From assembly GCA_021162615.1 (NCBI GenBank), contig JAGGYH010000080.1, forward strand, positions 34,899 through 98,898: a stretch of DNA of 64,000 bases, written 5' to 3'. This DNA is from Candidatus Aminicenantes bacterium. Lineage in GTDB: Bacteria; Acidobacteriota; Aminicenantia; Aminicenantales; Aminicenantaceae. This document shows positions 30 through 46,535 of this stretch, piece after piece. The notes under the pieces are model-generated. The model made no database searches. It was not told the DNA's origin and saw nothing but the letters and a program-made list of their open reading frames with translations. The stretch's first letter is position 1, and each line of letters starts with the position of its first letter. Made by a program: the position numbers and the translations under genes.

Positions 30-995
30 TTGAGTCAAATCGGATTTCAAAAAAAATTACTTAAGAACGAAATCATCCTGAACCAGACAAAACTCAAAAA
101 AGCGAATCAGGAACTTTCAGTATTAGAGAAAAAAATTCCCTCTATTCAAAAAAAACTGGAAGAAGAAAAGCAGGCTGTTGAGAAAATACTGGTAGCTTTG
201 TACAAGCTTGGGAAAATAGACTATTTTGAACTCATGCTCAAAGTTAATGACGCTGCTGGATTTTTAATTGAAAACAAACATCTCACCCTTATAGCAAGGC
301 ATCAAGAAAAAAAAATATCCGAGTATCTATATACTCTGGATGAATTAAACGAATCTCTTTCCGAAGCAGAAAAAAAGAAAAAAGAAATAAAGGCTCTGGT
401 CCTCAGTTCCGAGCAGAAGAATCAAGAACTCATTTCCCAGGAAAAGAGATACACTTCACTTATCAATAGAATAAACAGCAACAAAGAATCCTATCAAAAA
501 ACCATAAAGGAACTGCAAGAAAGATCTGAACAACTGCAAAATCTAATGGAGAAAATACTTAAAAATCCGAGTTCCATTCCTGTTAACCTTATTCCCATGT
601 ACGAAAAAAAAGGATCCCTGCCGTGGCCCATACAAGGAAAAGTCATATCATCATTCGGACTTAAAAGGCATCCGAAATTCAACACCATAACAAAAAACAA
701 CGGCATAGAGATATCACCGGGGGGAAATTCTGTAGTAAAATGCATACACCCGGGCATAGTCGTGTATACAGACTATTTCCAGGGATACGGGAATCTCATA
801 ATCATAGACCATGGGATGTCCTATTATTCTCTTTATGGTCACTGCTCGAGTTTCATCGTTTCTAAGGGCGATGCCGTGAATTCAGGCCAGCCTATTGCCA
901 TAGTGGGAGATACCAGCTCCCTATCCGGAAAAAGCCTGTATTTTGAGGTCCGCTATAAGACCAAACCTCTAGATCCCTTGAAATGGCTGAAATAA
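30..995 (+). CDS. envC: Murein hydrolase activator EnvC-like: N-terminal coiled coil plus C-terminal M23/LytM peptidase domain. Reading frame is open to position 1, so the gene may start upstream of the window.
   Basis: ORF-track protein has a long K/E-rich coiled-coil N-half and a C-terminal LytM-like block (GNLIIIDHG..YYSLYGH..IAIVGDTS..LYFEVR). TTG start at 30 with no upstream in-frame stop. Followed by S41 peptidase and a yibQ-like gene, as in the enterobacterial envC neighbourhood. Confidence 0.7.
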   Translation: MSQIGFQKKLLKNEIILNQTKLKKANQELSVLEKKIPSIQKKLEEEKQAVEKILVALYKLGKIDYFELMLKVNDAAGFLIENKHLTLIARHQEKKISEYLYTLDELNESLSEAEKKKKEIKALVLSSEQKNQELISQEKRYTSLINRINSNKESYQKTIKELQERSEQLQNLMEKILKNPSSIPVNLIPMYEKKGSLPWPIQGKVISSFGLKRHPKFNTITKNNGIEISPGGNSVVKCIHPGIVVYTDYFQGYGNLIIIDHGMSYYSLYGHCSSFIVSKGDAVNSGQPIAIVGDTSSLSGKSLYFEVRYKTKPLDPLKWLK

Positions 996-20200: not shown

Positions 20201-20247
20201 CAAAATAATCATATATATCACATGAAAGATCTGTTATAACTAGCCTG

Positions 20248-20961
20248 GATGATGAACGAGTCGAGGTTGCTGTGTTATTGCGAAGAACAAAGTGATGAAG
20301 CAATCTCATTGTGAAACGAAGCGTCATGAGATCACCACGCCGCTGCGCTCCTCGTGATGATAAGGGAGCTCAGGCCACGCCACCTTTTAACCTTGCGAAA
20401 TTCAGGTATGGCCTGTGCTCCCTTCAGATTTTTAACGCCATTCTTCTTCGTTTTTCTCGGCTCCTGCGTAACTCCCCCCGTCCGTGGGTCAGACATACTC
20501 GGAGCCCGGCTTAGCCGGGTTCCCTCAAAAAGCCTCATCCGAAGGCTAAATCTTCAATGTCGCCACGTCCACACCTGGTTTTCGTAAGGTTAACGTTTAT
20601 CCTATAAGATAAATAGTATTACGCACAATCCCAACTTTCAGTCAGGCTGGGTGGTTCTGAAGTCATCCGGAGGCGAGCGGGCATGGTTCCTCGCAGAGGG
20701 GAGCGAGCCGAGGAATAAGCTGATTTTACTCGCTGGGGAAAATCAGCGGGCTGAAGAACCAGCTTGCCTGATGAAAGCCGGGAGCACAGACCGCGCCTGA
20801 ATTTCACATCGGCTTGCCTCAAAAGTAAAAAAAAGACGATTAAAATGAAATACCTAACCAGGAAAAGAGCTGCTATCGTCATTCTTAATATAATCTTGCA
20901 TATCGCTGGAACAAAATGAATAATAAATACATCGCCATTTTATTATGAATAGGTCAGGCTA
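20248..20961. repeat. Copy 1 (longest, about 714 bp) of a mosaic non-coding intergenic repeat family (modules A-B-C-D-E plus an internal inverted copy of C/D)
   Basis: Shares a 5' module GATGAT..AGTCGAGGTTGCTG, an internal CAACTCCCCCCGTCC(A/G)TGGGT module, about 110 nt of near-identical sequence (GAGCGAGCCGAGGAATAAGCTGATTTTACTCGCTGGGGAAAATCAGCGGGCTGAAGAACCAGCTTGCCTGATGAAAGCCGGGAGCACAG) and a 3' terminus CATCGCCATTTTATTATGAATAGGTCAGGCT with copies at 33716-33977 and 44894-45254. No credible ORF. Confidence 0.8.
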
Positions 20962-33715: not shown

Positions 33716-33977
33716 GTGATTCACCTGTAATATTCACAAGTCGAGGTTGCTGCAGATGCGAGGCCCAGGGTGCGAAGCTGTGGTCCTTCACCGCGAGTGC
33801 CCTGTAACGAAGCAGATGCAGTGAGATCGGCTTGCCTAAAAGGTAAAAAAACGGCGATTAAAATGAAAGTGAAAAAAGCAATAACATTTCATTTATCATT
33901 TTTATAAAAAACATGTCTATCCTGTAAAGCAAAACAAAAAAATACTCATCGCCACTTTTTTATGAATAGGTCAGGTT
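33716..33977. repeat. Copy 2 (shortest, about 262 bp) of the mosaic intergenic repeat family (modules A, partial middle, D, E)
   Basis: GTGATTCACC..AGTCGAGGTTGCTG at the 5' end, ATCGGCTTGCCTAAAAGGTAAAAAAACGGCGATTAAAATGAAAG (module D) and CATCGCCACTTTTTTATGAATAGGTCAGGTT (module E), matching copies 1 and 3. Its 5' end lies 3 nt from the mfd start codon. Confidence 0.75.
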
Positions 33978-40716: not shown

Positions 40717-43836
<3,120 letters not shown>

Positions 43837-44361
43837 TGATAGCAGACTGGAGTTCAGGGGTCATCCTTTTCCTTATCCTGTCTGCGGCCGCTTTGGTCGT
43901 TATTTCCGCTGCATACACTCTGAGCTCTTTTATTCCTGAAGCATAAAGAGAATCGATTTCCTGTTTAGTCAGTTCTTTCAGGCGTTGGGCCTCCTGCCTG
44001 GCACTCTCTATGATGTCTTCTTTTTGCTTTTTGCCTTCTGATTCGGCTTCTTCCTTCATTTTTTTTACTTCTTCGTAAATCTCCTCCAACCTCCCCATAG
44101 CTCCCTTTAACTTCTTTTCCGATCCTTTCCTGGCTTCCACAGCCTCTTTTATGGAAAGGTCTGTTTTTTTGCTTCGTTCGTCCAGATAATTTTTTATGGG
44201 TTTTCTAAGGAGTAAAAAAAGCCCGCCGAAGAGCACTGTAAAATTGACAACTTTCCCCAAAAATTCCCCTGAATTTGATGTATGGCCTGTATTCTCAGGA
44301 GACATACATAGGAAAATGGGAATAATGAATAAAAGGATCCAAAAAACGTTTTTATCGGACA

Positions 44362-44778
44362 TCATTCTAATATTTTATCTTCTATCTTTTTTGCCAGATC
44401 TCCACTCTCTTTATGTATCTTTTTTTTCAACTCATTTATCTGTTTATCCAGCACTCTTTGCGCTTCCTTGACCTGATCCCGGCACTCGGAAGATATATCT
44501 GACAGCATTTTTTCCTTTTCTTCCAGAGCTTCCTTTTCAAACTTATCTTTTATTTTAACAGAAGAATTTTTAGCTGCCTTAAGGTCCTCTTCAATCTTTT
44601 TTATGATTTTTTCATATTTCTCATCCGCCTTTTTCCCGGCTTTTGCGTCATCTGATATTTTTGAATGCCTTTTCTTCATCACATTCCGGACCGGATTGAA
44701 ATATATTTTGGTAAGAACAGCCAAGAGAACCCATATGAGGATAAAAACGACCACTAAACTTATATCGACCGAAATCAT
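44362..44778 (-). CDS. F0F1 ATP synthase subunit b' (second b-type subunit)
   Basis: N-terminal TM helix plus K/E coiled coil, directly upstream of atpF. No atpB/atpE genes follow upstream. Confidence 0.7.
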   Translation of the reverse strand: MISVDISLVVVFILIWVLLAVLTKIYFNPVRNVMKKRHSKISDDAKAGKKADEKYEKIIKKIEEDLKAAKNSSVKIKDKFEKEALEEKEKMLSDISSECRDQVKEAQRVLDKQINELKKKIHKESGDLAKKIEDKILE

Positions 44779-44893: not shown

Positions 44894-45254
44894 GATGATT
44901 CACCAGTCGAGGTTTCTGCGCAACTCCCCCCGTCCATGGGTGATCCTGGTCATTCATAAAATATGGTTGCGTTTCCAACACATTTACCATGATCGGCTCT
45001 CTTATCATTCTTAATTCATTAAGAACATACTTCTTACGTTGGTACATGTAATAATTTTACTTTATGCAACCATATTTTACCTTCATAGGCGAGCCGAGGA
45101 ATAAGCTGATTTTACTCGCTGGGAAAAATCAGCGGGCTGAAGAACCAGCTTGCCTGATGAAAGCCGGGAGCACAGGCCACACCTTAATTTCAGATCGGCT
45201 CGCCTGAAATGCAAAACAATGAACATCGCTGTTTTTTTATGAATTGTTCAGGCT
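44894..45254. repeat. Copy 3 (about 361 bp) of the mosaic intergenic repeat family (modules A-B-unique-C-D-E)
   Basis: GATGATTCACCAGTCGAGGTTTCTG, CAACTCCCCCCGTCCATGGGTG, then near-identical GGCGAGCCGAGGAATAAGCTGATTTTACTCGCTGGGAAAAATCAGCGGGCTGAAGAACCAGCTTGCCTGATGAAAGCCGGGAGCACAGGCC, then TTATGAATTGTTCAGGCT at the 3' end, which overlaps the folC stop. Confidence 0.8.
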
Positions 45255-46535
45255 AACCGCTTTTTTCATCTCTCCCACAATATATAAAGATCCTGCAATC
45301 AATATGGAACCGGTCCTCCCCGCGTAACAAAGAGCCGACCTAAATGCCTGAACCGGATCAGGCTCACACGTGATTTTATGCTTATGATGGAGGGTTTCGG
45401 ACAGTATCTCTTCCGGAGAGGCCGCTCTGTAAAATCGAAATCTGGTGACAATGACCCTGTCTGCTTTTGGAAACAGTATATCAGAGATCTCCTTTATTTT
45501 CTTCCCTTTCATCACTGCAAATATCAGCACGGAAACAGAACCTGTAAATTCGTCCAGGTACTCTCTCAAAGCCTTGGCGCCTTCGATATTATGGGCGCCA
45601 TCCATAATAATCAGAGGTTTTCTAGAAATGATTTCCAGCCTGCCCGGCCATTCTGCTGACTCGATCCCTTTAATGATCTTCTCTTTATCCAGCTTCCGGC
45701 ATCTTTGATGGATCTGTTCAGCGATCCCAATGGCTATGGCCGCATTTTTTCCCTGATGAACTCCGGGTAAACATGTTGAATACCTGTACGCTTTATCATT
45801 GAGAATATAATCAAAGATAAACCGGTCCCTTATTTTTTTCTTCATAAAGCTCGTGTTATTCCCGAACACATCAAAAAACGGAGCCTTGAGCTCTTCGGCT
45901 CTCTTTTGAATGACCCTCTTCGGGTCTTCATCAATGACACCTGAGACGACAGGAACTCCCGGCTTAATGATTCCTGCCTTTTCAAAAGCGATTTGAGAAA
46001 GACTTTCCCCCAAATACTCCTGGTGTTCTCCTGAAATGGTCGTGATCGCCGTTACCACAGGGTCCACAGCTGTAGTGGCATCAAATCTTCCCCCCATCCC
46101 GACCTCCAGCACTGCCATGTCAACACAACTCTCTTTAAAATAAAGCACCGCCAAGAGGGTCATGAGCTCAAAATAGGTAGGAGGCGTTTTAAGTACACCC
46201 CTGTCTATCAGATTTTGTATTTTTTGTTTTAAAAACTCCAGCAGCCGGCAAAATTCCGTTCTGTGAATAAGGTCATCTCCAATCCTTATCCGTTCCTCAA
46301 TGTCAACCAGATGGGGAGATGTGAAAAGCCCGCACTTTATTCCATGTGAGGTCAAAATCCTTGTCACCATCGCACACACAGAGCCCTTCCCGTTTGAACC
46401 GGCGACCTGGATTGTTTTGAAGTCTTTTTGAGGATCGCCCAATTCGCTCATTACAGCACGGACATTATCAAGACCGAATTTTATGCCCAAGGATTGTATA
46501 CGTGCTAGATAACTCAGACAATCCCGGTAATTCAT
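45237..46535 (-). CDS. folC: Bifunctional folylpolyglutamate synthase / dihydrofolate synthase
   Basis: Mur-ligase P-loop QVAGSNGKGS. Central and C-terminal Mur ligase domains. Confidence 0.85.
   Translation of the reverse strand: MNYRDCLSYLARIQSLGIKFGLDNVRAVMSELGDPQKDFKTIQVAGSNGKGSVCAMVTRILTSHGIKCGLFTSPHLVDIEERIRIGDDLIHRTEFCRLLEFLKQKIQNLIDRGVLKTPPTYFELMTLLAVLYFKESCVDMAVLEVGMGGRFDATTAVDPVVTAITTISGEHQEYLGESLSQIAFEKAGIIKPGVPVVSGVIDEDPKRVIQKRAEELKAPFFDVFGNNTSFMKKKIRDRFIFDYILNDKAYRYSTCLPGVHQGKNAAIAIGIAEQIHQRCRKLDKEKIIKGIESAEWPGRLEIISRKPLIIMDGAHNIEGAKALREYLDEFTGSVSVLIFAVMKGKKIKEISDILFPKADRVIVTRFRFYRAASPEEILSETLHHKHKITCEPDPVQAFRSALCYAGRTGSILIAGSLYIVGEMKKAVSLNNS

Follow-up and report, generated by a model that had tools for sequence, protein, structure and literature searches.

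Bacterial miniature inverted-repeat transposable elements (MITEs) such as Correia of Neisseria, the enterobacterial ERIC/IRU and the pneumococcal RUP and BOX are known for stable predicted RNA folds. The repeat family described here lies in a 64,000-nucleotide stretch of DNA from a Candidatus Aminicenantes bacterium (GenBank assembly GCA_021162615.1, contig JAGGYH010000080.1, positions 34,899 to 98,898 of the forward strand; hereafter the window, with coordinates counted from its first letter). It resembles those MITEs in being small and non-coding, in its terminal inverted repeats (TIRs) and short target duplications, in its many intergenic copies, often at gene ends, in its modular or mosaic build (compare boxA, boxB and boxC of BOX) and in a strong folding potential able to affect neighbouring transcripts. 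However, no sequence relation to them was found, and the family differs in carrying interchangeable cargo, which we call L, R and E; in R, a single-stranded core stays invariant across subtypes whose helices are unrelated in sequence, which recalls a functional RNA motif more than the body of a MITE. We consider it probable that the family is a MITE carrier whose R cargo is a folded plus-strand module, a judgement taken jointly over the carrier, the R fold and the proposed transposase and RNA steps; a pseudoknot within R, closed by a stem called S1, is unproven.

Repeats of the REP/BIME and REPIN type, mobilised by RAYT proteins, share with this family mosaics of short motifs in alternating orientation, hairpins and compensatory stem changes, but they are palindromes of 20-40 nt without ends made of TIRs plus duplications, whereas TIRs and 4-bp duplications are present here. 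Among the clustered neighbouring open reading frames (ORFs) there was no RAYT-like gene. IS5 makes 4-bp YTAR target duplications (PMC5009759). The duplication here is likewise 4 bp long, and TTAA, CTAA, TTAG and CTAG dominate the flanks; against this likeness, no transposase gene was found here, and non-YTAR duplications (TTCA, TTTT and CTTT) also occur. The TIRs begin with CCTG, unlike those of E. coli IS5, which we take to begin with GGAAGGTG. A link of the carrier to the IS5 family is no more than a lead.

The carrier and its copies

Three copies are found in the window (Table 1). Copy 1 occupies most of the intergenic region between a GFO/IDH/MocA gene (minus strand) and a patatin gene (plus strand), and is flanked by CTAG (20240-43) and CTAA (20959-62), which match at three of four positions and are both YTAR. 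Copy 2 lies between two identical 4-mers, TTCA (33720-23 and 33976-79), a perfect target-site duplication. Across the collected loci, TIR motifs were counted 94 times in forward and 94 times in reverse orientation. The TIRs are about 16-29 nt long, with ends CCTGGATTATTCAC.../CCTGACCTATTCATAA... (the pair is also given as CCTGGATTATTCAC/CCTGACCTATTCAT), and the recurring end motifs CCTGACCTATTCATAA... and CCTGGATTATTCACAAGTCGAGG... flank many copies in inverted orientation. In a systematic search, identical 4-mers flanked 22 of 41 TIR pairs; nine of these 22 duplications are non-palindromic or differ from TTAA (ATAA, TTAT, CTAT, TTTT, CTTT, TCTA, TAAA, CTTA and TTCA). Over single ends, TTAA, CTAA, TTAG or CTAG stands at 73 of 188 flanks, and other 4-mers occur too.

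The elements measure 160-715 bp and hold no conserved ORF, the copies differing by a frameshifting indel and a stop codon; a candidate protein-coding "module A" (P-R/W-T-G-G-V...) was rejected on the same grounds, the stop being in frame. With its TIRs, a fixed-length target-site duplication and many small non-coding copies, the carrier is a modular, non-autonomous MITE that makes 4-bp target-site duplications with a preference for TTAA/YTAR. The initial annotation had set function at the RNA level against a mere DNA repeat. This is a false opposition: the family is at once a transposon-like DNA repeat, with TIRs and target-site duplications, and the carrier of a structured module.

The family is present in dozens of copies per metagenome-assembled genome (MAG), in at least four MAGs of uncultured bacteria and in many metagenomes of sediments, among them salt-marsh, hypersaline and hydrothermal ones (samples of L081-L200 and ERZ27247998). 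In genome contigs, an 18-nt anchor taken from the shared module matched about 44 true copies, nearly all in four MAGs; two of these hold 23 or more and 14 or more, for the most part no further than about 100 nt from a contig end, and contigs that carry the identical patatin gene also end within the repeat. With the loop motif of the L element, a scan of metagenomes gave at least 120 loci. No relatives were found in E. coli genomes or plasmids, and neither anchor matched viral contigs. Alignment of full-length copies showed that the shared module is only the 3' third of a conserved unit of about 410 nt (20397-20807), composed of the 187-nt L element, a variable spacer, the R domain of about 145 nt and a tail. 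The copies are mosaic, truncated and nested.

Mechanistically, a DDE transposase, possibly IS5-like, would move the carrier in trans by recognising its TIRs. The only two long TIR pairs with matching flanks (loci L193 and L115) enclose not transposases but aminotransferase-like and beta-lactamase-like ORFs, assigned by eye from their translations. No recurrent neighbouring ORF was found: clustering gave only orthologues, with no transposase, TnpB/IscB, reverse transcriptase or RAYT among them.

The D-type TIR carries an outward-facing ATG (TTTT-ATG-AAT-AAY-CAG-G), seen in the window at 20943-20958, 33960-33975 and 45237-45252 and also at L017, L021 and L068. At some loci the frame from this ATG stays open into the flank (MNNQD...); in the window it gives only mini-ORFs of 5-7 codons. 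MITE insertions might thus donate start codons.

A maintained plus-strand fold in the R domain

Searches with nhmmer and a covariance model added three divergent subtypes to the window type (W): X (L183 twice, L124 and L192), Y (L163 and L200) and Z (L184). All four share an outer helix, a closing helix Pb, the strand GAGCGGGCAUGGUU, the hairpin Pa, the stretch (G)AGCGA, a linker and the hairpin S2. The strand GAGCGGGCAUGGUU is invariant across the subtypes; J1, the single-stranded segment of the core, is invariant at columns 9-22 of alignment A4, and Z keeps GCGGGCATGGTT. The apical loop of S2 reads (C)CUCGCUGGGG in W, X and Y and CGGCUGGG in Z, and the Pa stem has 5-8 bp depending on the subtype. 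The outer helix, on the other hand, is unrelated in sequence between subtypes, one complementary sequence being swapped for another: ACUUUCAG..UUCUGAAG/CUGAAGAACCAGCUUGCCUGAUGAAAGU in W, AAGAAUCAGGUUAAUUGAU/AUCAACUAACCUGAUUCUU in X, GAAGGGCAUGGG/CCCUUGCCCUUC in Y and a helix of about 27 bp in Z.

The S2 hairpin shows the clearest covariation. Across W, X, Y and Z, five of its ten pairs are changed on both sides in alignment A6 and four of ten in A5, and its covariation score was reached by none of 500 shuffles, all slid controls being lower. Each count is conservative for one subtype, because MAFFT and cmalign each mis-register Y or Z in S2. Read by eye, the stem is GCUGAUUUU/AAAAUCAGC in W, GCGGAUUUU/AAAAUCCGC in X, GUGAGAUUC/GAAUCGAAC with a tandem G.A in Y, and AGGGAUUUCC/GGAAAUCCCU in Z; a sub-class of W that seemingly breaks S2 (GCUGAGAUUC/GAAGAUCAGC) has the same tandem G.A as Y. 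In the MAFFT alignment A4, two of the three Pb pairs are changed on both sides, from G-C to C-G and from C-G to U-A in Y (by eye, the Pb pairs of Z are A-U, C-G and A-U), as is one of the five Pa pairs, a C-G to U-A compensation in X.

The fold is also specific to one strand. The minimum free energy (MFE) of the R domain is -68.4 kcal/mol on the plus strand (z-score -4.4, MFE structure equal to the centroid) and -48.9 kcal/mol on the minus strand (z-score -2.6), a difference of about 20 kcal/mol. ViennaRNA places S2 in the MFE structure of the W, X and Z domains. Over all MFE helices of W, G.U and A.C juxtapositions stand at 125:21, and in the outer helix and S2 together, by our own tally of the per-pair table, at 51:1. 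The R domain is thus a conserved plus-strand fold: compensatory change, or wholesale replacement by another complementary sequence, preserves S2, Pa, Pb and the outer helix. Functionally, R may act as a folded single strand, most probably an RNA transcribed from the plus strand; by analogy with other bacterial MITEs, this RNA could then serve as a protein-binding, processing or stability module.

Several observations weigh against this reading. The plus strand of 20244-20958 has no called sigma70-type promoter or intrinsic terminator, and no autonomous, transposase-bearing copy was found in about 1.5 Mb of flanking DNA. All the sequences are paralogous copies of one mobile element, for which shuffle controls overstate significance, and the G.U excess comes mostly from a few conserved G.U pairs inherited by descent, with few independent events. 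The L element, many of whose helices have compensatory pairs with abundant Watson-Crick compensation, lacks the G.U bias (G.U:A.C of 78:112) and folds better on the minus strand (-66.7 versus -53.7 kcal/mol); part of the family's covariation could therefore be of DNA-level origin, through palindrome correction or subfamily descent. Finally, in L004 (JGI 3300016457), a strain variant of the copy 1 locus (20640-20750), the interior between the arms of the outer helix is deleted (..CTTTCAGGCAGGC|GGGCTGAAGAACC..). Either the core has been knocked out naturally in this variant or the assembly collapsed over the inverted repeat; taken as it stands, the variant implies that the host tolerates loss of the R core.

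These points, together with the MITE nature of the carrier and its mosaic, truncated and nested copies, would fit a purely DNA-level account, in which the helices are inverted repeats of a transposon kept by master-copy descent or templated quasi-palindrome repair, with no RNA function. We regard this account as doubtful. It is at odds with the strong strand asymmetry of the R domain and with an invariant unpaired strand that stands beside helices of unrelated sequence in four subtypes, a pattern typical of a folded functional strand and not of TIR recognition. DDE transposition, moreover, needs only the element ends.

At the other extreme, the R core could be a previously undescribed class of functional structured RNA spread as MITE cargo, with S1 real and the L element a second such RNA. 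Its core would then comprise Pb, the GAGCGGGCAUGGUU strand, Pa, AGCGA and the S2 hairpin with its GCUGGGG loop, and it would bind a protein or ligand, or self-process. In this full form we find the proposal distinctly improbable. If the preferred reading of a MITE carrier with a folded plus-strand cargo is true, the family is another bacterial MITE with strong folding potential, which is not surprising in kind. For annotation it is of use to know that the repeat fills whole intergenic regions, breaks assemblies and supplies the stop codon of folC. Less ordinary is the cargo, where an invariant unpaired strand and a covarying hairpin occur on one strand only while the other helices are unrelated across four subtypes. 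Such a pattern usually marks an RNA with a specific job, and the mobile dispersal of a functional RNA motif would merit a look at the bench.

Rfam 15, whose families include riboswitches, ribozymes, omega/HEARO RNAs and sRNAs, gave no match at the gathering threshold in the window, and permissive Rfam scans of the window region and seven related loci covering W, X, Y and Z gave only chance-level matches. Look-alike matches to C/D-box snoRNA were due to UGAUGA/CUGA strings, and a hammerhead ribozyme, suspected from CUGAUGA...GAAA, was discarded for lack of the stem II/III geometry and of an Rfam match. A long-range helix P1 (GCGAGCCGA/TCGGCTTGC) proved an artefact of folding fragments, its 3' partner missing in most copies.

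Five loci (L029, L060, L068, L080 and L128) carry a short form of R from which 26 nt (J1 and Pa) are missing; it persists at orthologous loci, and the direct repeats GGAGGCGAGCG and GGGGAGCGAGC apparently recombined to produce it.

The proposed stem S1 and a possible extension of the S2 hairpin

The initial annotation had proposed a conserved H-type pseudoknot in copies 1 and 3. The two interleaved stems of copy 1 read exactly as described: S1 pairs AGCGAG (20702-20707) with CTCGCT (20729-20734) and S2 pairs GCTGATTTT (20719-20727) with AAAATCAGC (20739-20747), in the order S1-S2-S1'-S2' with loops of 11, 1 and 4 nt. This segment of 46 nt amounts to one arm of the R domain and the junction strand next to it. 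The arrangement is also present in copy 3, at 45088-45133 and so one base off at each end from the 45089-45132 first given; the first base of S1 is a G there, so that the stem either ends in a G.U pair or has 5 bp, and loop 3 reads GGGA where copy 1 has GGGG. Copies 1 and 3 show one difference across their first 88 shared nt and are therefore recent duplicates, whose agreement in S1 and S2 weighs little. Copy 3 is a recent truncated relic that cannot form the R domain: J1, Pa and the 5' arm of the outer helix are missing, and the copy matches locally only at 45083-45142. A function at the RNA level had been argued from the agreement of these two copies, which reflects recent common descent; what speaks for it instead is the maintained one-strand fold with its covarying S2.

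In dinucleotide shuffles of the 134-nt module, interleaved perfect stems of at least 6 and at least 9 bp within 70 nt appeared in 22 of 5000 (0.44%), while a 6+6 pair appeared in 255 of 2000 (13%) and a 5+5 pair in 788 of 1000 (79%). The 6+9 arrangement is rare because S2 has 9 bp, an extra short interleaved stem being cheap. Chance complementarity without significance, which the frequency of short interleaved stems might suggest, is thus highly improbable as an account of the whole: it is contradicted for S2, which covaries, and possible for S1 alone. The S1/S2 observation is real and not a product of chance.

A genuine pseudoknot would have J2 (AGCGA) and the loop UCGCU lock the S2 hairpin onto a three-way junction, with both strands invariant under strong constraint. 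Consistent with this, few stretches of the core in W, X and Y are conserved as well as AGCG(A) and (U)CGCU, 37-39 of about 40 scored rows retain the central G-C, C-G and G-C pairs, a C-to-U change in L050 keeps a wobble pair, the S1 duplex is worth -7.8 kcal/mol (-5.2 for 5 bp), and the 6+9 interleaving is itself rare by chance. However, compensatory substitutions in further copies, which S2 has, are absent from S1: no pair is changed on both sides, and three or four of the five pairs depart only through unpaired cells. About eight independent substitutions break the stem. Three different substitutions, U-to-C and U-to-G among them, disrupt its terminal A-U in several lineages; L071 has two uncompensated changes, L010 and L034 are also uncompensated, and the X copies L124, L192 and L183b have an A.A mismatch. 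In X, Y and Z the stem shrinks to 3-5 bp, Z retaining only AGC/GCU. In addition, G20707 is needed by both S1 and Pb. The initial expectation that other copies would leave the stems unbroken fails for S2 as well (uncompensated breaks in L116, L060 and L128), although such breaks are a weak criterion for a decaying repeat family.

The comparison with classic H-type pseudoknots, such as viral frameshift signals and the 3' end of turnip yellow mosaic virus, leads in the same direction. The order S1-L1-S2-L2-S1'-L3-S2' is possible in the sequence, but L1 is here partly paired in Pb and so not a free loop, and S1, which does not covary, sits inside a multi-helix junction with S2 outside it. A loop 3 of 3-4 nt across a stem of 5-6 bp would also be tight for H-type geometry. 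On this evidence we hold a genuine pseudoknot to be unlikely.

The loop of S2 has an equally conserved nested alternative, in which S2 continues through C85-G95 and then CUC/GGG around a GCU triloop while J2 is kept for some other reason, for example protein binding. The CUC/GGG extension belongs to the ViennaRNA MFE structure of W, X and Z, with a related form in Y, and is paired in 95% of cells. C85-G95 occurs in 15 of the 27 distinct variants of the hairpin, with every X and Y copy among them, canonical W having A.G or A.A at this place; where A has changed to C at the foot of the loop, the resulting C-G pair makes the helix continuous. The 3' Gs of the extension are invariant, so that it shows no covariation either, and X copies with CCACGCU break its middle pair. 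We retain the nested hairpin as a tentative reading, one that is possible without being established. In energy, the extension contributes -5.1 kcal/mol with no knot penalty to pay, against the above value for the isolated S1 duplex before such a penalty, and these partial energies do not favour the knot. Another nested hairpin, CGCUGG/UCAGCG, came from a first fold in short context; it is not kept in Y, is gone from the MFE of the whole domain and was rejected.

The pseudoknot is accordingly unproven and should not be carried forward as established. If S1 forms, it would be a loop-to-junction tertiary contact between the apical loop of S2 and J2, and not a free-standing H-type knot.

Other modules and neighbouring genes

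Table 1. Coordinates of the repeat family's features in the window.
Feature	Position	Strand	Details
Copy 1	20244-20958	+	Composite MITE-like element, TIR to TIR, 715 bp; TIR pair CCTGGATGATGAACGA ... reverse of CCTGACCTATTCATAA
Left TIR	20244-20272	+	F-type, CCTGGATGATGAACGAGTCGAGGTTGCTG; motif ends many elements at other loci
L element	20397-20583		187 nt, closed by terminal helix GAAATTCAGG.../...CCTGGTTTTC; invariant loop AACTCCCCCCGTCCGTGGGTCAGAC
Spacer between L and R	20589-20633		Variable, AT-rich (TTATCCTATAAGATAAATAGTATTACGC...); no sigma70-type promoter called
R domain	20635-20777	+	Long outer helix (arms 20635-20664 and 20749-20777) around conserved core
R core	20667-20756	+	Covariance model R1 (116 bits)
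Pb, 5' strand	20672-20674	+	GGC, pairs with 20707-20709
J1	20675-20688	+	Single-stranded GAGCGGGCATGGTT; most conserved feature of the core
Pa hairpin	20688-20700	+	UCCUC-GCA-GAGGG
S1, 5' strand (junction strand J2)	20702-20707	+	AGCGAG; last G (20707) also claimed by Pb
S2 hairpin	20719-20747	+	GCTGATTTT / AAAATCAGC; 11-nt loop holds the S1 3' strand CTCGCT (20729-20734)
Tail	20780-20807	+	First ~26 nt of L in inverted orientation (GGGAGCACAGACCGCGCCTGAATTTC); 83% complementary to 20394-20422
Module C	20808-20850	+	ATCGGCTTGCCT..AAAAAAAAGACGATTAAAATGAAA; always joined to the outer side of the tail motif
Right TIR region	20930-20958	+	Module D, CATCGCCATTTTATTATGAATAGGTCAGG; TIR proper 20943-20958
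Copy 2	33724-33975	+	252 bp; member of the family with neither L nor R, carrying module E
Copy 3	44945-45252	+	Rearranged 308-bp element, TIR to TIR, without target-site duplication
Truncated R domain of copy 3	45083-45205	+	Keeps S1/S2, the 3' arm of the outer helix and the tail

The L element gave 164 nhmmer matches. It stands alone in 58 of 86 assessable copies and together with R in 28, so that R is an optional add-on. A third recurrent cargo, module E (GCAGATGCGAGGCCCAGGGTGCGAAGCTGTGGTCCTTCACCGCGAGTGCCCTGTAACGAAGCAGATGC; 33760-33826 in the window), also occurs in the flanks of L020, L031, L139 and L184, and replaces L between the F-type TIR and module C.

Within 45237-45260, the frame of folC (45237-46535, minus strand) enters the right TIR of copy 3, and the last codons of the gene (..S L N N S stop) are encoded by TTATGAATTGTTCAGG; the mobile element thus supplies its C-terminus as well as its stop codon. 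Nearby lies the head of an ATP synthase operon, with consecutive ORFs at 44362-44778 and 43781-44365 (minus strand), the latter matching ATP-synt_B of Pfam and the former resembling a b subunit by eye only. Between these two ORFs and folC, where copy 3 sits, there is no gene for an a or c subunit.

Of 40 R cores, 25 face the 3' end of a convergent gene whose stop codon follows the core after 43-60 nt and often coincides with the end of the element, a placement that probably reflects insertion into TTAA, CTAA or TTAG targets containing stop codons. At L200, a bacterial large (Alu-domain) signal recognition particle RNA (370-639, minus strand; RF01854, 175 bits) adjoins the Y-type R core and gives a hint of the lineage that carries the repeats. 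At L037 and L080, the R tail and module C abut a tRNA gene at its 3' end, the gene lying on the opposite strand (TGGCGAGGGACGGAATTGAACC...).

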